Positions 1-64,000 of a stretch of 64,000 nt of DNA are shown here, piece after piece. Numbering within the stretch: the first letter of the stretch is position 1; every line of letters starts with the position of its first letter. A model generated the notes under the pieces. It saw nothing but the letters and a program-made list of their open reading frames with translations, searched no databases and was not told the origin of the DNA. The stretch is from positions 6,264,001-6,328,000 of the forward strand of contig JASTWF010000033.1 of the NCBI GenBank assembly GCA_030390025.1. Reading direction: 5' to 3'. The translations under genes were made by a program, and so were the position numbers. The stretch comes from Squalus acanthias. Its lineage: Eukaryota.

Positions 1-563
1 GACCCTTGGGGATAGAATGGGAGAACAACTCAATCGGAAGTCCATGGGGAAACCATGTTGTGTTGGCCACGGTGGGGGCGGGAGCCTGAGGGTATATATG
101 GATGTGTAAACCCTCGACCAGGCCTACTGAAGAATTAGGTCAATCTTGGGTCCGAATTCCCGGTTTGCAGCCTTTCTCCTGCGTTTGTGTCCGGTGCAGA
201 AAATGCCCCCCCCCTTATCAATGGATGCTGGGTGAAAAGGAGGGAGGGCTGGGCCATGAAATGTGTGTTACTGATCATGTATCGGAATGTGAAAACCGAA
301 CCATAGATACCAGAGAATTCAAATTGAAAGTCCGTTCTAAATTCCACCCACCCCCCGCAAATAAAACACAATCGCGGGAAGAACAAGAAGAAACCCGGGT
401 TGTCTCCCAAACACACTCCGGGGCAGACAAATGGGTTAGTGGTAGTCCCAACTCGGGTATTATACCATGATGTGCCTCACAAGTTGGTGCCTGTGATATT
501 AAATCTGACCGAGGTGGGAATACCGGACTGGTGCAACCCAGAAACAGCGCGATTATATGGGAG

Positions 564-2179
564 TCATAGAGTCATAGAGTTATAAAGCACAGAAAGAGGT
601 CCTTCGGCCCATCGTATCTGCGCCGGCCATCAAGCCCTATCTATTCTAATCCCATTTTCCTGCACTTGGTCCGTAGCCTTGTATGCTATGGCGTTTCAAG
701 TGTTCATCTAAATGCTTCTTGAATGTTGTGAGGGTTCCTGCCTCTACCACCCTTTCAGGCAGTGAGTTCCAGATTCCAACCAAACTCTGGGTGAAAAAGT
801 TTTTCCTCAAATCCCCTCTAAACCTGCTGCCCCTTACCTTGAAACTATGCCCCCTGGTTATTGAGCCCTCTACTAAGGGGAACAGTTCCTTTCTATCTAC
901 CCTATCTATGCCCCTCATAATTTTGTACACCTCAATCAGGTCCCCCCCTCAGCCTTCTCTGCTCGAAGGAAACCAACCCCAGCCTGTCCAGTCTATCTTC
1001 ATAGCTGAAACGCTCCAGCCCAGGTAACACCCTGGTGAATCTCCTCTGCACCCTCTCTAATGTAATCACATCCTTCCTATAGTGTGGCGACCAGAACTGC
1101 ACACAATATTCCAGTTGTGGCCTAACTAGCGTTTTGCACAGCTCCATCATAACCTCCCTGCTCTTATATTCTATGCCTCGGCTAATGAAGGCAAGTATCC
1201 CATATGCCTTCTTAACTAACTTATCTACCTGTCTTGCTGCCTTCAGGGATCTATATACATGCACACCAAAGTCCCTCTGATCCTCTGTCCTTCCTAGGGT
1301 CCTACCATTCATTGTTTATTCCCTTGCCTTGATAGTCCTCCCAAAATGCATCACCTCACACTTTTCAGGGTTAAATTCCATTTGCCACTGTTGTGCCCAT
1401 CTGACCAACCCGTCTATATGGTCCTGTAGCCTAAGGCTTCCCTCCTCGCTATTTACCACTCCACCAATTTTCGTGTCCTCTGCGAACTTTCTGATCATAC
1501 CTCCTACATTCATATCTAAATCATTAATGCACACTACAAACAGCAAGGGACCCAGCACCGATCCCTGCGGTACACCACTGGACACATGCTTCCAGTCACA
1601 AAAACAACCTTCGACCATCACCCTCTGCCTCCTGCTACTAACCCAATTTTGGATCCAATGTGCCAAATTGGCCTGGATCACATAGGCTCTTACCTTCTTG
1701 ACAAGTCTCCCATACCGGACATTGTCAAAAGCCTTACAGAAGTCCATGTAGACCACATCAACTGTACTACCCTCATCCACACACCTAGTCACCTCCTCGA
1801 AAAATTCAATCAAATTGGTTAGACATGATCTCCCCCTGGCAAAGCCATGATGACTATCATTGATTAATCCTTGCCTCTCCAAGTGGAGAGTAATTCTGTC
1901 CCTCAGAATGTTTTCCAATAATTTCCCTACCACTGATGTTAGGCTCACTGGCCTGTAATTCCCTGCTTTATCCCGACTACCCTTCTTGAATAATGGTACT
2001 ATGTTAGCTGTCCTCCAGTCCTCTGTCATCTCCCCTGTGGCCAGAGACGTTCTGAAAATTTGTGTCAGAGCTCCTGCAATCTCCTCCCTTGACTCCCACA
2101 ACAGCCTGGGATACATCTCGTCTGGGCGTGGGGATTTATCCACTTTTAAGCCAGCTAAAACCGATAATACATCCTCTCT
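564..2179 (-). mobile_element. 5'-truncated CR1 (HER1-like) LINE inserted in env 1
   Basis: RT motifs [30 protein letters not shown] and FNPEKC; (CTCTATGA)n tail; env reading resumes on both sides with a GAG overlap. Confidence 0.93.
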
Positions 2180-23562: not shown

Positions 23563-26500
23563 CATAGAAACATAGAAGATAGGAGCAGGAGTAGGCCATT
23601 CGGCCCCTCGAGCCTGCTCCGCCATTCAATGCGATCATGGCTGATCATCCAAATTCAGTACCCTGTCCCTGCCTTCTCCCCATATCCCTTGATTCCTTTA
23701 GCATTAAGAAATATATCTAGCTCCTTCTTGAATATATTTAATGAATTGACTTCTACTACCTTCTGTGGTAGAGAATTCCACAGGTTCACCACTCTCTGGA
23801 GGAAGAAATTCCTCCTCATCTCAGTCCTCATCCTCATCCCTTATCCTTAGTCTGTGACCGCTGGTTCTGGACTCCCCCGCCATCGGGAACATCCTTCCTG
23901 CATCTGGTCTGTCTAGTCCTGTTAGAATTTTATAAGTTTCAATGAGATCCCCTCTCATTCTCTAAACTCTAGCGAATATAAGCCTAATCGATCCAATCTC
24001 ACCTCAGATGTAATTCCTGCCATCCCAGGTATCAGTCTGGTAAATCTTCGCTGCACTCTCTCCATGGCAAGAACATCCTTCCTCAGATAAAGCGACAAAA
24101 ACTGCACACAATACTCAAGGTGTGGTCTCACCAAGGCCCTGTACAACTGCAGCAAGACATCCTTGTTCCTGTACTCAGCCCAATTAAATGCATATTTTGG
24201 TTCTGTCTTCACAAAGGAGGACACAAATAACCTCCCAGAGATGTTGGAGAACATACGGTCTGATGACAGGGAGGAACTGAAAGAAATCAGTATTTGCAGG
24301 GAAATGGTGTTGGGGAAATTGACGGTATTGAAGGCCGATAAATCCCCATGGCCTGATAATCTACATCCTAGGGTATTTAAAGAAGTGGCCCTAGAAATAG
24401 TAGATGCATTGCTGATCATCTTCCAACATTCGATGGAATCTGGAACTGTACCCATGGATTGGAGGGTAGCTAATGTTACCCCACTATTCAAAAAGGGTGG
24501 TAGAGAGAAGGCGGGGAATTACAGACCGGTAAGCCTGACATCGGTAGTGGGGAAAATGCTAGAGTCCATTATAAAGGATGTAATAGCTGAGCATTTGAAA
24601 AACAGTGACAGGATCGGACAAAGTCAACATGGATTTACAAAAGGTAAATCGTGCTTGACTAATCTACTGGAATTTTTTGAGGATGTAACTGGGAAAATAG
24701 ATAAGGGAGAACCAGTAGATGTGGTGTATTTGGACTTTCAAAAGGCTTTCGATAAGGTCCCGCATAAGAGATTAGCGGGTAAATTTAAGGCACATGGGAT
24801 TGGGGGCAAGGTATAGACTTGGATAGAGAACTGGTTGGCGGACAGAAAGCAGAGAGTGGGAATTAATGGGTCTTTTTCCGAGTGGCAAGCAGTGACTAGT
24901 GGGGTACCGCAGGGATCGGTCCTTGGACCCCAGCTATTCACAATATACATTAATGATCTAGATAAGGGAATTAAATGTAATATCTCCAAGTTTGCAGATG
25001 ACACAAAGCTGGGTGGGAGTGTGTGCAGCGAGGAGGATAGCGAGAAACTCCAGGATGATCTGGACAGGTTGGGTGAGTGGGCAGAAGCGTGGCAGATGCA
25101 ATATAACGTGGATAAGTGCGAGGTTATCCGCTTTGGTGTCAAAAACAGAAAGGCAGACTATTATCTGAATGGCAAAAGATTGGGAGAAGGGGAAGTGCAA
25201 CGAGACCTGGGTGTCCTTGTGCACCAGTCGCTGAAAGTAAGCATGCAGGTGCAGCAGGCGGTGAAGAAGGCAAATGGTATGTTGGTCTTCATAGCGAAAG
25301 GGTTTGAGTATAGGAACAGGGATGTCCTGCTGCAGTTGTACAGGGCCTTGGTGAGACCACACCTTGAGTCCTGTGTGCAGTTTTGGTCGCCTTATCTGAG
25401 GAAGGATGTTCTTGCCATGGAAGGAGTTCAGCGAAGATTCACAAGGCTGATACCTGGGATGGCAGGAATGACATATGAGGAGAGATTGGGTCGATTGGGC
25501 TTATACTCGCTGGAGTATAGAAGATTGAGAGGGGATCTCATCGAAACATATAACATTCTGACAGGTCTGGACAAACTAGATGCAGGAAGAATGTTCCCGA
25601 TGATCAGAGAGTCCAGAACCAGGGGTCATAATCTACGGATAATGGGTAAACCATTTAGGACAGAAATGAAGAAGAATTTCTTCACCCAGAGAGTGGTGAA
25701 CCTGTGGAATTCTCTACCACAGAAGATAGTTGAGGCGAGGTCATTAAATATATTCAAGGATGAGTTAGATATATTTCTTAAAGCTAAAGGTATCAAGGGA
25801 TATGGGGAGAAGGCAGGTACAGGGTACTGAGTTTAGATGATCAGCCATGATCTCATCGAATGGCGGAGCAGGCTCGAGGGGCCGAATGGCCTACTCCTGC
25901 TCCTATCTTCTATGTTTGTATGTACTGGAATCGTCTCGCTATGAAGGCCATCATACCATTTGCCTTCTTAACCGCCTGCTGCACCTGCATGCTTACCTTC
26001 AGCGACTGGTGCACAAGGACTCCCACGTCTCGTTGCACTTCCCCTTTTCCCAATCTATTGCCGTTCAGATAATAATCTGCCTTCCTGTTTTTGCAACTGA
26101 AGTGGATAACCTCGCATTTATCCACATTATACTGCATTTGCCATGCATCTGCCCAATCACCTAACCAGTCCAAATCATTTTGGACTTTCTCTGCATCCTC
26201 CTCATAGCACACACACCCACCCAGCTTTATGTCGTCTACAAACTTGGAGATATTACAACTAGTTACCTCGTCTAGATCATTTATATATATTGTGAATAGC
26301 TGGGGTCCTAGCACCGATCCCTGCGGTACCCCACTAGTCACTGCCTGCCACTCGGAAAAAGACCCGTTTATTCCAACTCTTTGCTTCCTGTCTGCCAACT
26401 AGTTTTCTATCCAAGGCAGTACCTTACCCCCAATCCCATGTGCTTTAAATTTGCTTGCTAATCTCTTATGCAGGACCTTATCGAAAGCCTTCTGAAACTC

Positions 26501-26936: not shown

Positions 26937-27970
26937 TGTAAGTGGTTTTTGATCCTAGCCCAATTGCTAGATGGACGGTTCGAATCGCCCCCGCCTTACG
27001 AAAGTTCTACACCCGGGAATTATTATTCAGAGTGTAAATGAAGTAATTCACGGACATGAATGTTTCAGTGAAAAATCAAACTTATATTTATTTGGTCTAA
27101 CATACACTGGCTAAAACATGCACTACTAAACGAAATTACTGATTCTGTGGAGAATAAAATCCAGGTTACAAACAACATACATACAGTACAAAACTGAGGA
27201 CTATGACAAGCAGCAATTCCCTTGTTGCTATGGTGGACTCTCATTCCACCCCTACCAACGAATTACTCAGTCGCATAAGGCCCTTTCGCCTGGCTGAAAC
27301 AAAGTAAGCTCTGACCCTCACAATAGCCCAAAAGCCTCACTTTTGAGAAAAACTCTGAGCCCTCTGGTTACCGGCTTGGGACACTCGAGATCATGTTTAC
27401 CCCCACACACATTCCGTCTCGATTGCTCCGCTTAGCTGCTTCTTCCTCTGGTACTTCTTGTTAGGTCGATCTTGTTGGGGCGAGAGAGAGAGAGAGAGAG
27501 ATAAGGTGGGAAAGGATCTATCTTTATAGGAGTCTTGCTACCCATATCTTTCCCGCCAATCTTTAAAATCCTTTTGTTTCTAAGCACTCCAGTGCTTAAT
27601 CAGTGATGGAGTCATCCTCAGACCCATGTGTACTCCGTGTTTGTACTAATGGCCCTAAGTCTGGGACAGAATTCGGTCTTTGTGTTGGGAAAAATTGGCT
27701 CCTCTCCAGCTGGCAAGTCCAGTGGGTTCATTGTTCTGCTTCTCTTCTGAGATGGAGGTGAGTAGTGCTTTTGCATAATCTGGATGCCTGACAGTTCTTC
27801 CGTCACAGCCAACTGCCATGCGTTCTCTGGAGTTTTAACAAACCACTTTTTCACATATCTGCCCAGGGTGAGCCCATCACAGGGAACATATCCTCAGAAA
27901 AATCCCATAATATAAACAAAATATTCTCGACTGAGTCCATTCTTCAAACAGAGACTTTGCGATCTCTGCA
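26937..27970 (-). repeat. 3' LTR of ERV 2
   Basis: Minus strand TGCAGAG...ACTTACA; direct repeat of 38399-39424; TATAAA at 27523-27528 and AATAAA at 27087-27092; preceded by the purine tract AAACGGGGGAC. Confidence 0.93.
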
Positions 27971-28243: not shown

Positions 28244-28600
28244 CCGCGCACATCACACAGTACAGCATTGACAGGTGGTAACACATTACAATAACTCAAC
28301 AGCGCACATCACACAGTACAGCATTGACAGGTGGTAACACATTACAAAAATACAACAGCGCATATCACACAGTACAGCATTGACAGGTGGTAACACATTA
28401 CAATAACACAACAGCGCACATCACACAGTACAGCATTGACAGGTGGTAAGACATTACAATAATACAACAGCGCACATCACACAGTACAGCATTTACAGGT
28501 GGTAACACATTACAAAAATACAGCAGCGCACATCACACAGTACAGCATTGACAGGTGGTAACACATTACAAAAATACAACAGCACACATCACATAGTACA
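28244..28600. repeat. 56-bp tandem repeat (~6.5 copies) between env and the 3' LTR
   Basis: Unit CGCACATCACACAGTACAGCATTGACAGGTGGTAACACATTACAATAATACAACAG. Confidence 0.95.
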
Positions 28601-28757
28601 GATTGTAAAGCTATAACCAGAATACTATACACTCGCTTACACAACCTTGGTACATTACAAGTTTTTGCAGGGAGAAACCATCATCAACATAAATCAATTA
28701 CACCTTACCGGATCAATCTAACACCCTTTGCTACCGCGCTCGGAGCATCTGGCTCCA

Positions 28758-30006
28758 TCACTTGCAGCTGGTGTAGAACAAGTAGCTTACAAGCAACAAT
28801 TGTATGATAACTAATGCATGGGAACAGATGCGGATCCAGGGAGGAATCTCTATACTCAGACCGATGTCCCACCATGGTGGCGAGACAATCCCCTTCATCT
28901 CCTCCCCCACTTCTACTGTCTTTTGCTCCCTCCAAAGTGTAAAAATGTTTCTGGGAGAGTTCAACGGTCTTTATTAACTCAGTGAGATGTTCCGGCAGAA
29001 AAGGAATCATCCAGGTCCCTCTTCTCTGCCTCCCGGACCCCACACTATCCCCAACATTCAGATTATAAAGCTTTTCTTTCTCTACATTTCCATAGTCCAG
29101 TTCATAAAATTCCTGAAACGTCGCTTTTAACAGAGCTTCATAAAGCTTCTCCGTCTTCCTTGGACACCACACAGGCAGATGGACTTCAGTCAGGTTCAGG
29201 GTCACGGATGCCACGGCGTAGAGCACGTTCTGAAACAACACTTTGTCAGTCGGGATTAACACCAACCCATTCCCTGGACCCCTGGTGGTGGTGGGACACC
29301 CATCTACAGTCATCTGTACTGTCGGGGCTCTGGACGCGGGCTTCCTGGTGTATGAGATGAGCTCTGTGGCGTTGATGGTATTCGGGGGTTTTAGGATCAC
29401 ACAGGAGTCCACACTCCGATCCCAACCGATCCCACCCCTGGCGTCCTGCCATCGCCTGCTAAACGCGATCAACACACCTGCTGGGCAGATCTTTTCCGAG
29501 CCCCACATACACACATAAATCCCTTTCTCGGATTCCCACCACTTATCCCAACACACATTCACTCCTCCCTGAGAACCCGTGATCGTCCGGTACGTGTCAT
29601 GACTTAGTCTTTCCCAGTCAGCTGTCTGGTCCCCTGTATCCGCGCTCAGTTTCCTGAGCCACCACCACCTTCCCAGTGGAATATGTCCCCTGCAGCTAAG
29701 GCACACCCGTTTACCCTCTGTTACCCTAACCCGGGAGGTGATAACCCCTATTCTCGGGCATGGGATGGATGCTTCACCATAGGTGAACTTGTCATGACTG
29801 GAATAGCGGGTGGAATTCGACCCCAGCCATCCAGGCCAGCTTCCCTCGTGGAGATAGACGCTCGCCCCATCCTTCGAGCCACCTCCAGTGGTCATGGTCG
29901 GTCCGTCTCCGCCGGTGCAGCCGAAGATAACCGATTCCTCGGTGTCGCCCCTGTGACTCTCGCTGGCTTCAATCATGACGCTCAGGACTACCATGGCTGA
30001 CTTCAT
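28758..30006 (-). pseudogene. env: env of ERV 2: signal peptide, Ig-like domain, F2-like segment, furin site, internally deleted F1, TM anchor
   Basis: ATG at 30006 follows a pyrimidine-tract/CAG acceptor (30025-30026). Motifs: MKSAMVVLSVMI, RQRR at 29020-29031, a frameshift near 28930, then WWDIGLSIEIPPWIRICSHALVIIQLLLVSYLF. Confidence 0.87.
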
Positions 30007-30206: not shown

Positions 30207-31534
30207 CTAGGTCTCCTCGACCCTGGGCCTCTTACGACTCCGGCTTCCTTCGTTCAACGGTGTGTAAGGAGGCGTCCACGGCACCCTCGGCTGTGGGATC
30301 CTGACACTCCTTCTCACTCCTGCCCCTACAGGCGGAACGACTGGTCCCTCTGTGGGCTCCTCACTGTCCCAGATTATGGGCTGGAGACCCACAACTGTAG
30401 CGCAGCTCACCACTCCCTGCTGTTTCCTCCTCTTATCAGCTCTTTCCCCAGGGTTGAAAAGCTTCACTGATTGATATGGAACCACTTAGTGCGTCGAGGC
30501 ATTTTGACCACATATACCATTGGACTAGCCCTATCCACGATACTGTACGGTCCCATGTATAGCGGTTGAAAAGTCCCTACCCTGGCGAAGTTTCTAACCA
30601 TTACTTGCTCTCCGACCTTTCACTCGTGTTGCCTCTGAGGCTCAAGCAATAAACGATTTCTACGATGTTGCTTCCCCATGTTACTGGCAGCCTGCCAATG
30701 GGTCTGTCTGAGATGCTCAAACAAATTCTTAACAATCCTGTCCCGGTTCACCTCTCTCAACTGACCTTCTGTGAGAACCGGGGCCAGTACATGGCTGGGC
30801 GTTCTCATGACCCTGCCAGTCACGAGCTCATGTGGGGAATACCCTGTGCTTCTAGACGGGCTGGCTCGGACCCCCATCAGAACTAACGGCAAGACCTCCG
30901 CCCATTTTCTAGGCGAGTCTCCCGTCTCCTTCCGTAACCTTTCCTTGATGGTCCTATTCATCCGCTCCACGATCCCCGATGACTGCGTGTTGTGTGCGAC
31001 ATGCCATTTACCCTCTACACCTAGCATCTTCAGAGTCGCCTGCATGACTGCCGCTGTGAAGTGACTCCCCTGATCGGACTCCACATACCGTGGTAGCCGA
31101 GAGAACACTTCTCTCACTAGAATCCTTGCAGTCCACAAAGCTGTGGCTGTTCGGCATGGGAAGGCTTCTACCCATTTAGAGAACACATCCACCAGGACCA
31201 GGCAGTATGTGTAACCCACCTGCGCGGTGGGCAGCGGTCCGATATAATCGACCTGTATGGACTGCCATGGACCCTCCACTCTCCCAGTGTGTCCCATGGA
31301 AACGTTCCTTTTTGGAGGGTCAAGGTTGTTTGCACCACACACCAAGCAATAGCGCAGAAGTTGCGGAAGTCCTCCCTCAGTTGCGGCCAACACCCTGCCT
31401 GTTCCACCCGTTGCCAATGGTCTCCGGCCCGGGCTGCCCCGCTCCTGGACCCTCGTGGGACAACTGAAGGAATTATCTCCGGTGCTGCTGCAGAACTACC
31501 CACTGTTTCCCTCTAAAAACCATCTCTTCCTTTA
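30207..31534 (-). pseudogene. pol: Integrase region of ERV 2 pol
   Basis: CLVC, PWQSIQVDYIGPLP, VDVFSKWVEAFP, SDQGSHF, SSGIVERMNRTIK and a C-terminal YMGPY motif. Confidence 0.93.
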
Positions 31535-32958
31535 GAGTCATAGAGTCATAGAGTTATACAGCACAGAAAGAGGCCCTTCGGCCCCTCGTGTCCGCGCCGG
31601 CATTCAAGCCCTGTCTATTCTAATCCCATGTTCCAGCACTTGGTCCGTAGCCTTGTGTGCTATGGCGTGTCAAGTGCTCATCTAAATGATTCTTGAATAT
31701 TGTGAGGGTTCCTGCCTCTACCATCCTTTCAGGCAGTGATTTCCAGATTCCAACCACACTCTGGGTGAAAAAGTTTTTCCTCCAATCCCCTCTAAACCTC
31801 CTGCCCCTTCCCTTGAAACTATGCCCCCTGGTTATTGACCCCTCTACTAAGGGAAAACGTTCCTTTCTATCTACCCTATCTATGCCACTCATAATTGTGT
31901 ACACCTCAATCAGGTCCCCGCTCAGCCTTCTCTGCTCTAAGGAAAACAAGCCCAGCCTGTCCAGTCTCTCTTCATAGCTGAAGCGCTCCAGCCCAGGTAA
32001 CATCCTGGTGAATCTCCTCTGCACCCTCTCCAATGAACTCACATCCTTCCTATAGTGTGGCGACCAGAACTGCACACAGTATTCCAGCTGTGGCCGAACT
32101 ACCGTTTTGTACAGCTCCATCATAACCTCCCTGCTCTTATATTCTATGCCTCGGCTAATGAAGGCATGTTTCCCATATGCCTTTTTAACCACCTTATCAA
32201 CCTGTCCTGCTGCCTTCCGGGATCTATGTGCATGCTCACCAAGGTCCCTCTGATCCTCTGTCCTTCTTCGGGTCCTACCATTCATTGTGTATTCCGTTGT
32301 CTTGTTAGTCCTCCCAAAATGATTCACCTCACACTTTTCAGGGTTAAATTCCATTTGCCACTGTTCTGCCCATCTAACCAACCCGTCTATATAGTCCTGA
32401 AGCCGGAGGCTTCCCTCCTCACTATTTACCACGCCACCAATTTTCGTGTCATTTGCGAACTTACTGATCATACCTCCTACAGTCATATCTAAATCATTAA
32501 TGTACACTACAAACAGCAAAGGACCCAGCATTGGACACAGGCTTCCAGTCACAAAAACAACCTTCGACCATCACACTCTGCCTCCTGCCACTAAGCCAAT
32601 TTTGGATCAAAAGTGCCAAGTTGCACTGGATCCCATGGGCTTTTACCTTCTTGACCAGTCTCCCATGCGGGACTTTGTCAAAAGACTTACCGAAGTCCAT
32701 GTAGACTACATCAACTGCACTACCCTCATCCATACACCTAGTCACCCCCTCTAAAAATTCAATCAAATTGGTCAGACATGATCTCCCCCTGACAAAGTCA
32801 TGATGATTATCCTTGATTAATCCTTGCCTCTCCAAGTGGAGACTATTTCTGTCCCTCAGAATTTTTTCCAATAATTTCCCTACCACTGATGTTAGGCTCA
32901 CTGGCCTGTAATTCCCTGGTTTATCCCTACTACCCTTCTTGAATAATGGTACTACGTA
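31535..32958 (-). mobile_element. CR1 LINE inserted in pol (same subfamily as 564-2179)
   Basis: RT motifs and the same (CTCTATGA)n tail; TTTA duplication; pol reads ISV|KEEMVFRGKQWVV across the insertion. Confidence 0.92.
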
Positions 32959-35900
32959 TTTACCGAGATACCTGCCATTCCGTATGGACGCTCTACCTTA
33001 TCTCCCTTAGCCAGCGTCTCCAGAACAGTCTTTAGGACGGGATCCCGTGCCTGGACAATCTTTAGGTCCGGGGCCAATGTTTCCCCTGCACTCCCTTGGG
33101 CCCCAGCTTTGTCTCTGATCGCTGCTACCTGACTCGACCCATATGGATCCCAAAACGTGCCAGTTCGAGCACCCTCTTCGGTCATCACGTTGGCCTGCTG
33201 ATTGCCCTCCGCACGGGGTTCCCCCTTTGAATGGGCCTTAACTTTGTGGATATAGAAATCCCCCAGGGTTCCTATCCTTGTTATGATCTGTTGCAACAAT
33301 GGCTTTGTTGCTAGGGGTTTGCCGTCTGCAGATGTGAACCCGCGACGAGACCAAATGGCTAAATATTCTGTACACGAATTGCAAGTGAACATGCTGTCCC
33401 AGAAAATAGTGTAGGGCGTAGGGTATTATAGGGGAGGAGCTAAATACGATTAAAATCACTAAGGAATTGGTACTCAGTAAAATAATGGGACTCAAGGCGG
33501 ATAAATCCCCTGGACCTGATGGCTTTCATCCTAGGGTCTTGAGGGAAGTGGCAGTAGGGATTGTGGATGCTTTGGTAATAATTTTCCAAAATTCCCTGTA
33601 CTCAGCAAAGGTCCCGGCAGATTGGAAAACTGCTAATGTAACACCCTTATTTAAAAAGGTTATAGGCAGAAGGCTGGAAATTATAGACCAGTTAGCCTAA
33701 CATCTGTGGTGGGTAAAATTTTGGAGTCTATTATTAAGGAGACAGTAACGGAACATTTAGATAAACATAATTTAATAGGACAAAGTCAGCATGGCTTTAT
33801 GAAGGGGAAGTCATGTCTGACAAATTTGCTTGAGTTCTTTGAGGACATAACGTACAGGGTGGATAAAGGGGAACCAGTGGACGTAGTGTATTTAGACTTC
33901 TAGAAGGCATTCGACAAGGTGCCACATGAAAGATTAATGCTCAAGATAAAAAATCACTGGATTGGGGGTAATATTCTGGCATGGGTGGAGGATTGGTTAT
34001 CTAACAGGAAGCAGAGAGTTGGGATAAATGGTTCATTCTCGGACTGGCAACCAGTAGCCAGTGGTGTTCCGCAGGGGTCGTGCTGGGTCCCCAACTCTAT
34101 ATAATCTATATTAACGATTTGGAGGAGGGGACCGAGTGTAACATATCAAAGTTTGCAGATGATACAAGGATGGGAGGGAAAGTAGAAAGTGAGGAGGACA
34201 TTAAAAACGTACAAGGGGATATAGACAGGCTGGGTGAGTGGGCGGAGATTTGGCAGATGCAATACAATATTGGAAAATGTGAGGTTATGCACTTTGGCAG
34301 GAAAAATCAGAGAGCAAGTTATTATCTTAATGGCGAGAAACTGGAAAGTACTGCAGTACAAAGGGATCGGGGGGTCCAAGTGCAAGAAAATCAAAAAGTT
34401 ACTATGCAGGTGCAGCAGGTGATCAAGAAGGCCAACGGAATGTTGGCTTTTATTGCTAGGGGGATAGATTATAAAAACAGGGAGGTATTGCTGCAGTTAT
34501 ATAAGGTATTGGTAAGACCGCACCTGGAATATTGCGTACAGTTTTGGTGTCCATACTAAAGAAAAGACATACTTGCTCTCGAGGCAGTACAAAGAAGGTT
34601 CACTCGGTTAATTCCGGGGATGAGGGGGTGGACATATAAGGAGAGGTTGAGTAGATTGGGACTCTACTCATTGGAGTTCAGAAGAATGAGAGACGATCTT
34701 ATTGAAACATATAAGATTGTGAAGGGGCTTGATCGGGTGGATGCGGTAAGGATGTTCCCAAGGATGGTTGAAACTAGAACTAGGGGGCATAAACTTAGAA
34801 TAGGGGGCTGCTCTTTCAAAACCGAGATGAGGAGAAACTTCTTCACTCAGAGGGTAGTAGGTCTGTGGAATTTGCTGCCCCAGGAAGCTGTGGAAGCTAC
34901 ATCATTAAATAAATTTAAAACAGAAATAGATAGTTCCCTAGAAGTAAAGGGAATTACGGGTTACGGTGAGCGGGCAGGAAATTGGACATGAGGCTGAGTT
35001 CGGATCGGTCAGGGCCCTGTGGGTGGCAGAGCGGGCCCAGGGGCTGAGTGGCCGGGTCCTGCTCCTACTTCTTGTGTTCTTTAGATTTGAGGTTAGGATC
35101 AGATCAGCCATGATCTTATTGAATGGCGGAGCAGGCTCGCGGGGACGATTGGCCTACTCCTGCTACTATTTCTTATGTTCTTATGTTCTTATGGTACACT
35201 TAGGGGTGAGTAACCACATACACCACCGCCGACAGTTCAGCGTGCTGGGCGCTCATGCTGCTCGGGAGTTTAATGGCCTTGGCAATGCCTGCCTTTGGGT
35301 CAAAATTCCCGCATCCAGTGTGTTGCTCCCCTGCCACCACTGTACTGGGCCCGTCTACATGGATCCCAGCCCGAAACCCTATGTCTACGTCCCATACCCC
35401 TTCAACAGAACATTTGTGGGCCACCCCTGGGTAGATCAAATTTGCGGCGAGCTTGGGCTCACAGAGGCCTTTCACACTCAAATTTGTCTGAGAGAGCAAT
35501 AAAGTCCAGCGAGCAATGCGTGCACTGCTCACCGTGCCGTCCTTTATCCTCCCATCCAGAAGCATCTGAGTGGGCTAATGATGGGTTAAGAGAGTTAACG
35601 GGGATGCCCCCGTGAAGATTTGTGATCTCCTCACGGCCCAATGTGTGGCAAGCAGGTGCCTCTCACAATTGGAGTACCCCCTCTCTACATCTGTGAGGAT
35701 TCTTGATGAGTATACCACAGGCCTCAGCTTGCCATGCCGCTCCTGGAGCAGCACTGCGCTCAAACTCTCCCCTGTGGCAGCTACCTCCAAAAATAACTCC
35801 TTTCCCCCATCAACGCTCCTAAAGCAGGTGCGGTCTGCAGATCACTCTTCAGATGACTAAAAGCTGCCATGCAATCCTCATCCCACTCCCAGACCACTCC

Positions 35901-37287
35901 CTTTTGAAGCAGCCGGAGTAGACTAGCTGCCGTAGCGGCATAGTCCTCTATGAAATCCCTGCAATACCCTGTGAGACCCAGGAAGGATCTTACCCCCGTT
36001 ATCGTGGTCGGGGCAGGTAGCTCCTGTACCGCCTTCCTTTTCACCTTATCGATCGCCCTCTCGCCAGCACGTATGGTCAGCCTGAGGAATTTTACGTCCT
36101 GCTGGCCGATCTGTGCTTTCTTGGGATTAACCTTGAACCCAGCTTCCTTTTACAGACTCAGCAGCTCAGCCAGCAGGGGGCCATGCTCCTACCCCTCGTT
36201 GGAGAACAAAAGCAGATCGTCCACGTACTGTACAAGCCGCTGCGGTCTGCTGAACCCTTTTAAACAGTTGGCCATGTATTGGTGGAAAATAGAAGGGCTG
36301 TTATGAAACCCTTGGGGAAGGCAGGTCCATGTGTACTGCTGACCCTTGAAAGTGAACGTGAATTTAGAGGGATTTTGATAGGGATAGACCAGAATCTGTT
36401 TGAAATGTCCAGCACCGTGAATGTTTTCGCGGATGCCGGGATACTCCCGATCAGGTCAGCTACGGCTGCGACGGTAGGGGCACAGGCTGGGATGTTCTTG
36501 TTAAGAACTCGATAGTCCACAGTGGCTCTCCACAAATTGCCCGGTTTCCTAACCTGCCAAATCCGAGAGTTCACATGGGTCACTATGGGTCTCAACACAC
36601 CCTGCTCAACCAATGATCCCAATGCCGCCTCTAAATCCGCCTCTGCCTCTCTAGGGAAGTTGTACTGTTTCTGTGGTCGAGACATGGGGTCTCCTTCTAT
36701 TCTGACCTCCACCCCTATTACCCTCCCACAGTCGTGCTTGTGTGTAGCGAATGCCGCGAGGTTGGCTCGCACATCCGCTATGTACTCCGCCGGGGTAGAA
36801 GTGACCAAACGTTCAAGGTCATAACTATCCTTGGGCTTCATCGTACACACGGTTCCCTTGCCTTGCTTCCCTGGTATAACTACCACCTCCTTCTCCTTTC
36901 CCGTGCATACTGCCCCCGAAAGACAGTGATTCCGGAAATCCACCAATATCTTGTGGGCCAGTATGAAGACTGCCCCCAAAATGCCTATTCCTCCCGCTCC
37001 CACCGCATCAGGACACAATTCCACTCCGTATGGAGTGTACCCAGATCGATGGCTAGCGGGATGGAGAAAGACCCAGCCTGTCCGTTCCCGGTGGACCCTA
37101 CTAAGTTATATGGGACCCCGCTCGATAGAGATGATGTGGTCCGGTTATCCGCATAGACAATGATGCATGAAGCTCCAGTGTCCAGCAGATCGGTCCCTTG
37201 CACCTTCTCCACCACCATCTTCACGCACGGTCTCTTCCAAGCATCATATCTTAGTGGGCACAGGTAAACGGGCTGAGAAGCCCCTAG
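32959..37287 (-). pseudogene. pol: Protease-RT-tether-RNase H region of ERV 2 pol (interrupted by a CR1)
   Basis: Protease LLDTGAS; RT WRATVDYRVLN, VLDISNRFWSI, QYTWTCLPQGFHNSP and QYVDDLLL (YVDD 36216-36227); tether RPVVYSSRIL..CERHLLA; RNase H VDG..SAQHAEL|DS..WSRRGFTSADGKP..KVKAH..GNQQA. Confidence 0.92.
33426..35192 (+). mobile_element. CR1 LINE inserted in the RNase H of pol
   Basis: RT motifs, a (CTTATGTT)n tail and a GGTA duplication at the junctions. Confidence 0.92.
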
Positions 37288-38348
37288 TCATGGGTCGGGA
37301 TTGTTTGGGGCGGATGGGAGTACGCTGCCCGCTGCTGCATCCACCCTACCCTGCCCTGCCGTAAAGACTGCGCGGAGAGCAGCCACTAATACCGCGAACG
37401 GATCAGTGCTGCTTCCTGCCAAAGCTGCGGCTTTCTGCACTGGCGCTGGAGGATCCCCTTTCCCGCTCCTTTTGTCAGAGACTGGGCAGTCTTTCCTCCA
37501 GTGCCCTTTACTCCCACACCCATAACAACCCTGCTTCTTCTCTGAGATACCCCCTTCCTGGCGCCACTCTCTTCAAACGTTGCCTCCACTAGGCTTTAAC
37601 TCGTGTACTCTGCCCTTTGGTTTGTCATCCTCACCCCTACCATTCTTAAAAGAGCGAGTTAACTGCCGGATCACACTCTATTCTGTGGTCTGGGGATCCC
37701 TGGAATCGAACCACCCCTCTGCTTTGGCCTTGATCCTGGCAGGCTGTTCGCCACCAGGGTCCTCAGCCAATGAGCTCTAGGCTCCCCCTGCAGCTGCGCC
37801 CGGTCAGGCACCCCCGCACAGGCACTCCGGTAGACGGGCCAAAGCCTGGCGCCTATGTATGCCACCTGAATATCCTTCAACTGCTCTCCCAGCACCTTTA
37901 CCTCACTCGACAAGCGAGCGTTCTCCTCCCTAACCATCCTCTCGTTCCCCTTTGCCTCAGTTACCTGGCATTCCAGGAACTCCTTATGGTTACGGAAGGT
38001 TCCCTCCTGGCTTATTTTTCCCTGCTTCTCATTCTTTACCTCCGTGCATAACCTGCTCCCTACTACAGCCCTTGCATCTGACTGTGCCTCGGACTCCCTG
38101 ATCTCTGCCTCTAACTTAGCAACCTGCTTATCTAGCAGTTGGACGTGTCTTCGTAGACAGATGAGCCATATCGCCTTTTCAATGCTGCTCCTATGGTCCT
38201 TGCCCTCCGTCCATTCTGCCGCTGCGTCCACCGGACGCTCAGACCGCAACAAGCCTAGCACCCACTTCTTAGTGACGTTAACCTTCTTAAACTCATATGA
38301 AGAAATCATTTCCTCCATTTGGGATCTTTCACCAGAAGCCCTGTCCAT
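37288..38348 (-). pseudogene. gag: gag of ERV 2 (coiled-coil N-terminus, partial capsid, one CCHC knuckle)
   Basis: ATG lies 50 nt from the 5' LTR; heptad-rich N-terminus; CYGCGSKGHWRKDC at about 37486-37527; ends in TGA at 37288-37290; frameshifted and short. Confidence 0.85.
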
Positions 38349-38398: not shown

Positions 38399-39424
38399 TG
38401 TAAGTGTTTTTTTGATCCTAGCTCAATTGCTAGACGGACGGTTCAAATCGCCCCCGCCTTACGAAAATTGTACACCCGGGAATTATTATTCAGAGTGTAA
38501 ATGAAATAAGTCGCGGACAGGAATGCTTCGGTGAGAAATCAATCTTATATTTATTTGGTCTAACATACACTGGCTAAAACATTCACTACTAAACTAAATC
38601 ACTGTCTCTGTGGAGAATAAAATCCAGGTTACAAATAACATACATACAGTACAAAACTTAGGACTATGAATAAGGTAATTCCCTTGTTGCTATGGTGGAC
38701 TCTAATTCCACCCCTACCAACGAATTACCCAGTCGCATAAGCCGTTTCGCCTGGCTGAAACAAACAAAGCTCCCACCCCGGAATAGCCCAAAAACTTCAC
38801 TTCTGAGAAAAACTCTGAGCCCTCTGGTTACCGGCTTGGGACATTCGAGATCATGCTTAACCCCACACACAGTCCGTCTCGATCGCTCCACTTAGCTGCT
38901 TCTTCCTCTGGTACATCTTGTTAGGTCGAGCTTGTTGGGGCGAGAGAGAGACAGAGATAGAGAGAAAGGTGGGAAAGGGTTTATCTTTTTGGAGTCTCGC
39001 TACCCCTATGTATCCCGCCAATTTTTAAAATCATTTTATTTCTAAGCACTACGGTGCTTAATCAGTGATGGGGTCATCCATGAGTATTCCATGATTGGAC
39101 TAATGGCCCTAAGTCTGGGATATATTTCGGTCTTTGTGTTGGGCAAAACTGGCTCCTCTCCAGCTGGCTAGGCCACTGGGTTCATTGTTCTGCTTCTCTT
39201 CTCAGATGGAGGTGAGAAGAGCTTTTCCATATTCTGGATGACTGACAGTTGTTTTTTCACAGCCAACTGTCATGCGTTTTCTGGAGTTTTAACAAACCAG
39301 TTATTCACATATTTACACAGGGTGATCCCATCACAGGGAAAATAACCTCAGAAAATTTCCATAAAGTCCACAAAATATTCTCGACTGAGTCCATTCTTCA
39401 AACAGAGACTTTGCGATCTCTTCA
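38399..39424 (-). repeat. 5' LTR of ERV 2
   Basis: Direct repeat of 26937-27970; its TATA position is mutated (CAAAAA on the minus strand). Confidence 0.93.
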
Positions 39425-42400
39425 GATATTAGGTGGATTTGGGAGCAGCTGCCGATATTAGATGTGGTTATGAAGAGCTGCGGATATTAGGTGGTGTGGG
39501 GAGGCCCTGAGGATATTAGGTGGGATGGTGAGGAGCTCAGGATATTAGGTGGGGTGGGGAGGAGCTGAGGATATCAGGTGGGGTGGGGAGGAGCTGAGGA
39601 TATTAGATGGGGTGGGGAGGAGCTCAGGATATTAGGTGGGGTGGGGAGGAGCTGAGGATATTAGGTGGGGTGGGGAGGAGCTGAGGACAAAAGGTGGGGT
39701 GGGGAGGAGCTGAGGATATTAGGTGGGGCGGGGAGGAGCTGAGGATATTAGGTGGGGTGGGGGGAGCTGAGGATATTAGGTGGGGTGGGGAGGAGCTGAG
39801 GATATTAGGTGGGGTGGGGAGGAGCTGAGGATATTAGGTGGGGTGGGGAGGAGCTGAGGATATTAGGTGGGGTGGGGAGGAGCTGAGGATATTAGGTGGG
39901 CTGGGGAGGAGCTGAGGAAATTAGGTGTGGTGGGGAGGAGCTGAGGATATTAGGTGGGATGGGGAGAAGCTGAGGATATTAGGTGGGGTGGGGAGGTGCT
40001 AAGGATATTCGTTGGGGTGGGGAGGAGCTGAGGATATTAGGTGGGGTGGGGAGGAGCTGAGGATATTAGATGGTGTGGGGAGGAGCTGAAGATATTAGGT
40101 GGGGTGGGGAGGAGCTGAGGATATTAGTTGGGTTCAGGATGAGCTGTGGATATTAGGTGGGGTCGGGAGGAGCTGAGGATATTAGGTGGGGTGGAGAGAA
40201 GCTGAGGATATTAGGTGGGGAGGAGCTGAGGATATTAGGTGGGGTGGGGAGGAGCTGAGGATATTAGGTGGGGTGGGGAGGAGCTGAGGATATTAGGTGG
40301 GGTGGGTAGGAGCTGAAGATATTAGTTGGGGTGGGGAGGAGCCGAGGATATTAGGTGGGGTGGGGTGGAGCTGACGATATTAGGTGGGGTGGGGGGGAGC
40401 TGAGGATATTAGGTGAATTGGGGAGGAGATGAGGATATTAGGTGGGCTGGGGAGGTGCTGATGATATTAGGTGTGTTCACGAGGAGCGGAGGATATTATG
40501 TTGGGTGAGGAGGAGCTGAGGATATTATCTGGGGTGGGGGGAGCTGAGGATATTAGGTGGAGTAGGGAGGTGCTGAGGATATTAGGTGGGGTGTGGAAGA
40601 GCTGAGGATATTAGGTGGGTTCAGGAGGAGCTGAGGATATTAGGTGGGGTGGGGAGGAGCTGAGGATATTAGAGGGTTGGGATGAGCTGAGGATATTAAG
40701 TGGGCTGGGGAGGAGCTGCGGATATCAGATGGGGTAGGGAGGAGCTGAGGATATTAGGTGGGGTGGCGAGGAGCTGCGGATATCAGATGGGGAAGGGAGG
40801 AGCTGAGGATATTAGGTGGGGTGGGGAGGAGCTGAGGATATTAGGTGGGGTGGGGAGGAGCTGAGGAAATTAGTTGGGGTTTGGGAGGAACTGAGGATAT
40901 TAGTTGGGTTCAGGATGAGCTGTGGATATTAGGTAGGGTGGGGAGGAGCTGAGGATATTAGGTGGGGTGGAGAGAAGCTGAGGATATTAGGTGGGGAGGA
41001 GCTGATGATATTAGGTGGGGTGGGGTTGAGCTGAGGATATTAGGTGGGGTGGGTAGGAGCTGAAGATATTAGGTGGGGTGGAGAGGAGCTGAGGATATTA
41101 GTTGGGGTGTGGAGGAGCTGAGGATATTAGGTGAGGTGGGGAGGAGCTGAGGATATTAGGTGGGGTGGGGAGGTGCTGAGGATATTAGGTGGGTTCACGA
41201 GGAGCGGAGGATATTAGGTGGGGTGAGGAGGAGCTGAGGACATTATCTGGGGTGGGAGGAGCTGAGGATATTAGGTGGGGTGGGGAGGTGCTGAGGATAT
41301 TAAGTGGGGTGGGAAGGAGCTGAGTATATCAGATGGGGTGGGGAGGAGCTGAGGATATTACTTGGGGTCGGAGGAGCTGAGGATATTAGTTGGGGTGGGG
41401 AGTTGCTGAGGATATTCGTTGGGGTGGGGAGGAGCTGAGGATATTAGTTTGGGTGGGGAGGTGCTGAGGATATTAAGTGGGGTGGGGAGGAGCTGAGGAT
41501 ATTAGATGGGGTGGGAGGTGCTGAGGATATTAGGTGGGGTGTGGAGGAGCTGAAGATATTAGGTGGGTTCAGGAGAAGCTGAGGATATTAGGTGGGTTCA
41601 GGAGGAGCTGAGGATATTAGGTGGGGTGGGGAGGAGCTGAGGATATTAGAGGGTTGGGATGAGCTGAGGATATTAGGTGGGGTGGGTAGGAGCTGAGTAT
41701 ATCAGATGGGGTGGGGAGGAGCTGAGGATATTAGATGGGTTGGGGAGGAGCTGAGGATATTACTTGCGGTCGGAGGAGCTGAGGATATTAGTTGGGGTGG
41801 GGAGTTGCTGAGGATATTCGTTGGGGTGGCGAGGAGCTGAGGATATTAGTTTGGGTGGGGAGGTGCTGAGGATATTAAGTGGGGTGAGGAGGAGCTGAGG
41901 ATATTAGATGGTGTGGGAGGTGCTGAGGTTATTAGGTGGGGTGAGGAGGAGCTGAGGATATTAGATGAGGTGGGAGGTGCTGAAGATATTAGGTGGGTTC
42001 AGGAGAAGCTGAGGATATTAGGTGTGGTGGGGAGTAGCTGAGGTTATTAGGTGGGGTGGGGAGGAGCTGAGGATATTAGGTGGGGTTTGGGAGGAACTGA
42101 GGATATTAGTTGTGGTGGGGAGGAGCTGAGGATATTAGTTGGGGTGGGGAGGTGCTGAGGATATTAGGTGGGTTCACAAGGAGCGGAGGATATTAGGTGG
42201 GGTGCGGAGGAGCTGAGGATATTATCTGGGGTGGGGGGAGCTGAGGATATTAGGTGGAGTAGGGAGGTGCTGAGGATATTAGGTGGGGTGTGGAAGAGCT
42301 GAGGATATTAGGTGGGTTCAGGAGGAGCTGAGGATATTAGGTGGGGTGGGGAGGAGCTGAGGATATTAGAGGGTTGGGATGAGCTGAGGATATTAAGTGG

Positions 42401-54056: not shown

Positions 54057-64000
<9,944 letters not shown>

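Follow-up and report, generated by a model that had tools for sequence, protein, structure and literature searches.

A predicted immunoglobulin-type domain at the N-terminus of a retroviral envelope protein family of cartilaginous fishes

Does a retrovirus of cartilaginous fishes carry an immunoglobulin domain on its envelope protein, and what might such a domain do there? The question is raised by a 64,000-nt stretch of DNA from Squalus acanthias (contig JASTWF010000033.1 of assembly GCA_030390025.1, positions 6,264,001 to 6,328,000), here called the window. Its minus strand holds an envelope (env) open reading frame (ORF) of 433 amino acids at 28705-30006, and an initial annotation, made from the sequence, had proposed that an immunoglobulin-like domain at 29500-29735 stands in front of a viral fusion protein. 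We propose, with a probability of roughly 60%, that this stretch is the core of a V/I-type domain of the immunoglobulin superfamily (IgSF) and forms the N-terminal, receptor-binding head of a retroviral class I fusion glycoprotein. As judged from a predicted structure, the outer tip of Env very probably folds like the variable domain of an antibody.

The N-terminal module and its distribution

The interval 29500-29735 encodes residues 91-169 of the ORF, which read VRVTEGKRVCLSC-RGHIPLGR-WWW...VNVCW...ESEKGIYVC; the translation matches exactly the string that had first drawn attention to it. Upstream of the cleavage site, the protein has cysteines at residues 30, 83, 102, 105, 152, 166, 174, 202, 237, and 281. 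C105 and C166 are 61 residues apart, as the initial annotation had stated, and so fall within the 55-75 residues that separate the hallmark cysteines of immunoglobulin V/I domains; the extra cysteine pair that it had reported is C102/C152. The F-strand motif E-K-G-I-Y-V-C corresponds to residues 160-166, and it reads EGIYGC in divergent lineages. A second copy of the motif was also found where it had been placed, in a divergent endogenous retrovirus (ERV) fragment that we call ERV 1: MLCWPRWGREPEGIYGC is encoded at nucleotides 55-105 of the window (plus strand, frame 1). The upstream half of that motif lies just beyond the window edge (locus L039) and reads ...VQEGRGICIKC...VWFIQ..., with the same B-strand and C-strand pattern as the window copy.

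To compare the module with solved structures, we used alignment A1, whose 16 natural sequences all come from one host group and represent at least four env lineages. A search of 177,635 PDB sequences with a profile of A1 returned 31 matches at E ≤ 10, each of which is an IgSF chain by name; they include antibody light chains, a single-chain variable fragment, a nanobody, CD8alpha, CRTAM, and basigin. CD8alpha ranked first (8hxs_A; E = 3.5e-4, 23.1 bits), with a match that covered 87 profile positions and 91 of the 100 residues of the chain; the other 30 matches had E = 0.038-0.57. In the alignment to CD8alpha, the B-strand cysteine, the C-strand tryptophan, and the D-x-G-x-Y-x-C motif are in register. 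W115 aligns to the tryptophan of hWF/qWL in CD8alpha and CRTAM, and C105/C166 align to the cysteine pair of both proteins.

Single-sequence searches gave less. The window ORF had no match in Pfam at E ≤ 1, and phmmer with a full-length env against the PDB returned chance rows only. A single-sequence Pfam search gave only Ig_3 (E = 0.14, 13 bits against a cut-off of 30). Across 18 family members, Ig_3 was the commonest sub-threshold family (6/18, best E = 0.013), and V-set reached E = 0.33.

The initial annotation had suggested predicting the structure, with the lack of a beta-sandwich as the outcome that would speak against an immunoglobulin domain. An AlphaFold2 model of residues 18-245, built from A1, is all-beta, with a predicted local distance difference test score (pLDDT) of 71.7 and a predicted template modelling score (pTM) of 0.71, and it contains an immunoglobulin-type beta-sandwich. 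From the DSSP string of the model, we assigned the core strands as A' (VRVTEG), B (VCLSC), C (WWWLRK), D (RTITGS), E (VNVCW), and F (GIYVCMWGS). An independent full-length model of L031, from a 63%-identical lineage, has the same strand order in the module. By blocks, the pLDDT of that model is mostly 65-83 in the module (45-57 at residues 41-80) and below 50 in the remainder.

Structure searches with the module model agreed with the profile. Foldseek, which had been suggested as a way to look for V/I-set folds, gave 99 matches in the PDB at E ≤ 1e-3 (best 1.6e-4), and the top rows listed are variable domains of antibodies, nanobodies, and shark VNAR, by entry title. When we compared the model to 48,161 representative chains with VIA-align, immunoglobulin V/I-set domains nearly filled the top 50 rows (Z = 8.1-9.3, with 84-101 residues aligned). 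The best of these was CD79b (Z = 9.3, root-mean-square deviation 2.5, 92/95 residues), and other top rows were CD8, BTLA, variable domains of T-cell receptors and antibodies, titin, obscurin, and NCAM/NCAM2. The named ESM-Atlas neighbours of the N-terminal module are immunoglobulin clusters (0.90-0.91). Among viral structures in BFVD, the named rows are mostly captured immunoglobulin-domain glycoproteins of pox-, herpes-, and adenoviruses. Identity of the module to any solved immunoglobulin domain is 9-20%.

The module resembles IgSF V/I domains (CD8alpha, CRTAM, CD79b, BTLA, antibody light-chain variable domains, shark VNAR) in the patterns V-x-V-x-EG...C and E-x-G-x-Y-x-C, in a tryptophan 9-11 residues after the B-strand cysteine, in the cysteine spacing, and in the predicted two-sheet sandwich. 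Unlike those domains, it has the additional conserved pair C102/C152, it is rich in tryptophan in the C and E-F regions, its core is preceded by an N-terminal extension of about 70 residues, it has a cysteine-flanked insert of about 35 residues or more after the F strand, and it is encoded by the env gene of a provirus and not by a host gene. The insert (residues 173-209) is predicted to contain two extra strands and is wholly different between lineages. Because the VIA alignments end at about model residue 202-204, because these extra strands are so variable, and because antibodies with very long CDR-H3 hairpins (third complementarity-determining region of the heavy chain) are among the top Foldseek rows, the G strand of the model is probably TINATELIS (210-218), and residues 173-209 would then form a long, cysteine-braced FG hairpin.

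Several results weigh against our reading of the fold. None of the Pfam immunoglobulin families reached its cut-off in the 18 members (Ig_3 scored 13.1-13.9 bits against 30), and A1, from which the model was built, has just 16 rows from one host group. The Foldseek superpositions have root-mean-square deviations of 6-13 Å and template modelling (TM) scores of 0.41-0.62 on target length. Models that have no true match often reach a VIA Z of 7-8, which the 9.3 seen here exceeds only slightly, so the VIA result lends support but does not decide the matter. The Atlas feature counts of the immunoglobulin rows are 152-163 of 256, as compared to 170 for typical true members. The disulfides and the FG-hairpin topology are putative and are deduced from the model. 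It could be argued that the likeness is that of a generic beta-sandwich with chance motifs, in an unrelated viral fold: the Pfam matches are all sub-threshold, the VIA scores are middling, and the alignment is shallow. We consider this improbable, and it is already disfavoured: every one of the profile matches in the PDB, down from E = 3.5e-4, is to the IgSF; the B-strand cysteine, the C-strand tryptophan, and the F-strand Y-x-C align and are conserved at 20-24% identity; and two different structure aligners put immunoglobulin V/I-set domains almost exclusively at the top.

The conservation of the hallmark residues could be followed through the family, as the initial annotation had recommended. 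Nine residues (C83, C102, C105, W115, C152, W153, W157, Y164, and C166; env numbering is the A1 alignment position plus 17) are each present in at least 90% of the 16 rows of A1, which includes lineages that are only 20-24% identical to the window copy, so the sequence pattern is not due to chance. We also scored eight hallmark residues at 42 loci that were found by tblastn with residues 88-220. All eight are kept in 26 of the 42 loci; one or two are changed in the remaining 16, which are decayed copies. The cysteines, tryptophans, and tyrosine are thus retained across divergent env lineages.

The other recommended test was of dN/dS, which we estimated by the Nei-Gojobori method between three lineages; the values are rough, as dS is saturated (1.7-2.2). 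The immunoglobulin core has dN of 0.13-0.20 and omega of about 0.07-0.10, so it is under purifying selection. It is the slowest-evolving part of the protein upstream of the cleavage site: the F2-like segment has dN of 0.20-0.29, the N-terminal extension 0.25-0.36, and the insert that follows the F strand 0.24-0.39, and the linker reaches 0.9.

The module is a feature of a viral family, as had been proposed. The window env has at least 103 matches in the 3.7-Gb genome. The module is present in all 42 of the tblastn-matched loci (among those fetched), in at least four env lineages of the genome, and in proteins from three further species of cartilaginous fish. This refutes the idea that the window copy alone gained it, by local insertion or by transduction of a host exon. 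We inspected eight divergent loci; each is an env gene that continues in an F-like part or has an integrase upstream, and none is a host gene. Weak matches to ORFs of 110 amino acids were considered as possible host genes, and the two that we inspected are frameshifted env copies.

Searches for related proteins (word-indexed searches and an exhaustive search of 1.84 billion representatives) found 7, 3, 14, and 13 proteins. Every named relative is from a cartilaginous fish (Pristiophorus, a sawshark; Rhinoraja, a skate; and Scyliorhinus, a catshark). These searches found no relative from teleosts, amphibians, or viruses, and no host IgSF donor. Two sawshark gene models, P0004 ("zinc finger protein ZFP2-like") and P0006 ("Niban 1-like"), have pieces of env fused to host sequence; they could be gene-model artefacts or exonised ERV fragments.

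We also noticed 31-mers of the env stretch in sequencing runs that are labelled with eight other organisms (shares of 0.29-0.38), so near-identical copies seem to exist beyond one species, although this is a lead only. Three sequencing runs that are presumed to be RNA gave env contigs with 90-99% likeness, which says nothing firm about expression, and none of the runs listed as holding env is recorded as RNA.

The F-like part of the protein and the possible role of the module

Full-length env ORFs in the genome have 782-814 amino acids. They encode, in order, a signal peptide, the N-terminal module, a linker, a conserved block, GRQRR, a fusion peptide, a long helical repeat, about 200 residues rich in cysteine and strands, a second repeat, a hydrophobic anchor, and a short tail. 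The block, which belongs to the F2-like segment (about 95 residues in full-length members), reads CPxTTxGPxNGLVL...NLT...LP.WC and is present in all lineages in A1. The fusion peptide is G(A/T)WND..TA(F/Y)STG..., and the second repeat includes ...FGY.IP.LPE.L...ELSQKHFYTLEQ.... This is the order of a class I F protein: signal peptide, F2, polybasic site, fusion peptide, heptad repeat A, beta domains, heptad repeat B, and anchor. In the low-confidence model of L031, residues 352-444 contain helices, residues 478-645 contain strands, and further helices follow at 680-710 and 729-754. The module does lie N-terminal to the F2-like segment and the furin site, as the initial annotation had it; the extension that separates these from the signal peptide, put at about 240 residues in that annotation, measures about 219 (residues 18-236).

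The claim that the part after the linker is an F-type fusogen fared less well, and its membership in that class is weakly supported. The domain order fits, ESM-Atlas places residues 240-720 next to clusters of Baculo_F (0.92) and Fusion_gly (0.91), and there are weak Foldseek rows; on the other side, PF00523 is not matched and the full-length model is poor. Neither PF00523 (paramyxo- and pneumovirus F) nor PF12259 (baculovirus and errantivirus F) matched any of the 18 members at E ≤ 10, and among PDB sequences the A2 family profile retrieved no F chain. PF00523 was likewise without a match when run genome-wide, but this search used a stricter first filter and so is no evidence of absence. With a pLDDT of 44, the full-length model is too poor to place the head on a trimer or to establish an F fold, and all of its BFVD rows have TM ≤ 0.17. 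Those rows include the Envs of walleye dermal sarcoma virus (E = 4.5e-7) and walleye epidermal hyperplasia virus (4.6e-6), F0 of the paramyxovirus Sunshine Coast virus (9.2e-4) and the baculovirus F protein Ld130 (1.5e-3), both with TM ≤ 0.15, nidovirus spikes, and feline foamy virus Env (6.4e-3). These rows suggest, as a lead only, that the rest of the protein may be class I and F- or spike-like, perhaps nearest to epsilonretrovirus Env.

One comparison is with lokiretroviruses. In four published consensus Envs of these viruses, EPGPxxGIVL follows right after the signal peptide and R-x-K/R-R comes about 90 residues on (PMC7947760). In the window env, GPGNGLVL is at about residue 245 and RQRR is at 326-329, so by eye the F2-like part is colinear with theirs, at about 90 residues from GP-x-x-G-(I/L)-V-L to cleavage. 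The order from signal peptide to anchor and the R-x-K/R-R site are likewise shared with lokiretrovirus Env and with paramyxo- and pneumovirus F. Unlike in lokiretrovirus Env, about 220 residues that include the immunoglobulin domain are interposed before F2. Because these published lokiretrovirus Envs begin with the F2-like motif right after the signal peptide, this module of about 220 residues is, by eye and from sequence, an N-terminal addition relative to them. Loki-Str Env is reported to match PF00523 at E = 2.2e-7 (PMC7947760), unlike the 18 members here. In the survey table of that paper, the row for Orectolobiformes (Chondrichthyes) gives three genomes, none of which has lokiretroviruses (PMC7947760).

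A second comparison is with foamy viruses. Among solved chains, pol here is closest to foamy-virus protease-reverse transcriptase and integrase, with murine leukemia virus (MLV) reverse transcriptase (RT) and Ty3 integrase next. The CCHC knuckle in the Gag of the provirus is not known as a foamy-virus trait, and we saw no leader peptide in env, unlike in Env gp130; these features do not fit a classical foamy virus. There is also no Pfam foamy Env match, and the feline foamy virus row comes from the poor model. Foamy-virus Env does have an F-like core with a built-in receptor-binding domain (RBD). That domain sits between the HRC helix and the furin site, immediately ahead of the latter, and the accessible text of the source does not describe it as an immunoglobulin domain (PMC11468914). 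In contrast, the extra domain here is N-terminal to F2.

In BFVD, the full-length model was best matched by the Envs of the walleye viruses, which are epsilonretroviruses. These alignments span about 770 columns, but TM is ≤ 0.12 and the query has a pLDDT of 44, so the match is a lead only. The walleye Envs are much longer (1159-1317 residues) than the members of this family, and they are not among the top 50 BFVD rows for the model of the module. Coronavirus spikes are similar in principle, as a fusion machine with its own attachment domain (S1). The captured immunoglobulin glycoproteins of pox-, herpes-, and adenoviruses are also viral membrane proteins with host-like V domains, but they are separate accessory proteins, while the module described here is part of a retroviral fusion protein. 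The Env of epsilonretroviruses, which are retroviruses of fish, is described as a type of its own that differs from the gamma type (PMC9967133).

What would the module do? It is most likely the part of Env that binds the host cell. We favour a receptor-binding head because there is a single env gene, because the module is the sole sizeable domain before the cleavage site, because a flexible linker follows it, and because a conserved sandwich is combined with variable loops. In this proposal, the conserved sandwich would serve as a scaffold, specificity would reside in the N-terminal extension and the variable insert, and binding of the receptor would release the F-like machine. We infer that the module is homologous to IgSF domains by ancient capture from a host gene. 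A more specific scenario is possible but tentative: a cartilaginous-fish retrovirus may in the distant past have taken a V domain of the lymphocyte-surface type from a host and fused it to the N-terminus of an F-type fusogen, giving an antibody-like head for receptor recognition, with a fast-changing, CDR3-like insert and a framework-like sandwich.

One point counts against a receptor-binding role. The N-terminus of F-type proteins starts close to domain II, which is membrane-proximal (PMC11468914), so an N-terminal head would be expected at the side or base of the trimer unless the linker reaches up, which would be odd for a receptor binder.

The same evidence can be read in other ways. The nearest analogues of the module are V domains of the lymphocyte surface (CD8alpha, CRTAM, CD79b, and BTLA), and the BFVD rows are largely the captured immunoglobulin domains of large DNA viruses, which serve as host mimics; the core is also unusually conserved for a receptor-binding head. 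A real immunoglobulin module might therefore be an immune-modulating or decoy copy of a lymphocyte IgSF molecule, or a shield over the fusion core. We think that this is unlikely, since a retrovirus with a single env needs attachment and no other candidate domain precedes the cleavage site, and since the variable insert and the N-terminal extension resemble specificity loops.

The strong purifying selection on the core would also suit a structural cap that has no ligand of its own and holds the prefusion state or aids folding, with attachment being unspecific or mediated by the F-like body, as for pneumovirus F. By eye, the four published lokiretrovirus Envs are without the module, so an F-like Env can apparently dispense with it. 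We rate this slightly below mimicry or shielding: the flexible Pro/Thr linker, with its low confidence and high dN, suggests a tethered head, and lineage-specific cysteine-rich inserts are hard to explain for a pure scaffold. We retain the receptor-binding head as our preferred proposal.

The provirus and the surrounding DNA

The env ORF belongs to a minus-oriented provirus whose parts are listed in Table 1; its broken RT and protease frames are spread over about 35575-37287. Residues 52-159 of the protein piece from 36260-36850 match foamy-virus protease-RT (E = 3.2e-15) and MLV RT (4e-10) among solved chains. An intact integrase homologue at another locus (L024, 2700-3998) is closest, among solved chains, to the integrase of prototype foamy virus (E = 3.8e-29).

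Table 1. Features of the window, with the evidence for each (LTR, long terminal repeat; LINE, long interspersed nuclear element)
Feature	Position	Strand	Evidence or remark
env fragment of the divergent lineage ERV 1	1..570	+	CW..W...EGIYxC motif; stops; LINE cuts at ~575
3' LTR, approximate limits	26946..27923	-	87-93% identical to 5' LTR blocks
56-nt tandem repeat, 6.4 copies	28246..28605	.	94% matches; between env stop and 3' LTR
env ORF, internally deleted copy	28705..30006	-	433 aa; full-length relatives of 782-814 aa elsewhere in genome
Membrane-proximal heptad-repeat remnant	28927..29010	-	Directly after cleavage site; comparison with L024, L031
F2-like segment, residues 237-329, ending in furin site RQRR (29020-29031)	29020..29298	-	Block conserved in all lineages
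Pro/Thr-rich linker, residues 221-236	29299..29346	-	pLDDT <50; highest dN of measured regions
N-terminal beta-rich module, residues 18-220	29347..29955	-	AlphaFold2 all-beta, pLDDT 71.7, pTM 0.71
Lineage-variable Cys-flanked insert after F strand, residues 173-209	29380..29490	-	Model strands 180-188, 193-203
Predicted immunoglobulin V/I-type core, residues 88-172	29491..29745	-	Profile against PDB, structure searches, conservation, dN/dS 0.07-0.10
Probable signal peptide, residues 1-17	29956..30006	-	Hydrophobic N-terminus, by eye
Integrase	30620..31495	-	Pfam rve, E 4.6e-11
LINE-type RT insertion within pol, not provirus proper	31620..32997	-	Pfam RVT_1 on two ORFs
RNase H	32952..33425	-	Pfam PF00075, E 1.1e-7
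Start of protease/RT	36260..37105	-	ORFs; broken frames run on to ~35575
gag segment with CCHC zinc knuckle CYGCGSKGHWRKDC	37288..37572	-	Stop-to-stop ORF translation; motif by eye
5' LTR, approximate limits	38409..39377	-	Three direct-repeat blocks, spacing 11454-11463 nt

The window's own env copy is dead because the whole fusion core is missing (RQRRGTW is joined straight to IPFLPEHL) and the frame is shifted after HFYTLE, before the anchor. Contigs of other env copies part from it near 29010, where the deletion junction lies, and they differ from it by 4 nt at 28926, which accounts for the change of frame.

The same deletion of the core is found at three or more other loci (L007, L011, and L015), with open frames of 407-414 amino acids and 92-99% identity, so a core-deleted env subfamily has spread. 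These copies retain the signal peptide, the immunoglobulin head, F2, the cleavage site, the last heptad repeat, and the membrane anchor. It is speculation, but a membrane-anchored head without fusion machinery could block a receptor.

At the predicted mature N-terminus, env residues 19-21 are the tripeptide RGD (29944-29952, minus strand). Of the eight A1 rows that belong to lineage A, six have it (the window copy, L024, L031, L035, L038, and P0001), while P0002, a ray protein, and P0009 have RGR. This is a possible integrin-binding motif, as a candidate from sequence.

The window also contains four LINE-type RT copies (31620-32997, minus strand; 33422-34991, plus; 24091-25830, plus; and 575-2340), which share a ...RLGLYSLE(F/Y)RR... 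tail. Two of them are inserted in the pol gene of the provirus, and one cuts the env of ERV 1. A satellite array at 39425-45111, with a 29-nt unit, about 198 copies, and a strong G skew, begins at the outer edge of the 5' LTR. A second array, with an 18-nt unit, at least 550 copies, and 65% GC, runs from 54059 to the end of the window at 64000, and it explains the many overlapping "ORFs" there.

Novelty and significance

The initial annotation had considered the architecture undescribed, and this holds in part. Large DNA viruses are known to carry captured immunoglobulin domains. Retroviral Envs that resemble F have also been described (PMC7947760 and PMC11468914), and an F-like core with a built-in RBD has a precedent in foamy-virus Env (PMC11468914). 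An N-terminal module like an IgSF V domain was not found in print. In the literature on env genes of shark and other cartilaginous-fish ERVs and on IgSF or V-set domains in retroviral envelopes, we found no Env with an N-terminal immunoglobulin head and no description of this env family in cartilaginous fishes; work on foamy-like ERVs of cartilaginous fishes and bioRxiv supplements were outside the scope of this search. The word "immunoglobulin" does not occur in the papers on lokiretroviruses, the Odin paper, a preprint on Envs of anamniotes, a 2026 review of ERV structures, or a preprint on errantiviruses.

F-like Envs, as found in lokiretroviruses and foamy viruses, have recently connected retroviruses to the negative-strand RNA viruses. 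The family described here adds a modular step, with an immunoglobulin-type head in front of F, as compared to the bare F of the four published lokiretrovirus Envs. If the tentative capture scenario is correct, then this would be a third independent way to give an F-like machine its own attachment domain, beside the RBD of foamy viruses and S1 of coronaviruses.

Surveys of fish ERVs left such env genes without detectable domains (PMC10699275), and fold and domain assignments can now be offered for the env genes of shark and ray ERVs. If the head does bind a receptor, then the family shows how a virus with a single envelope gene makes an F-type fusogen self-sufficient, and it would be a rare case of a host-type immunoglobulin V domain inside a retroviral Env.

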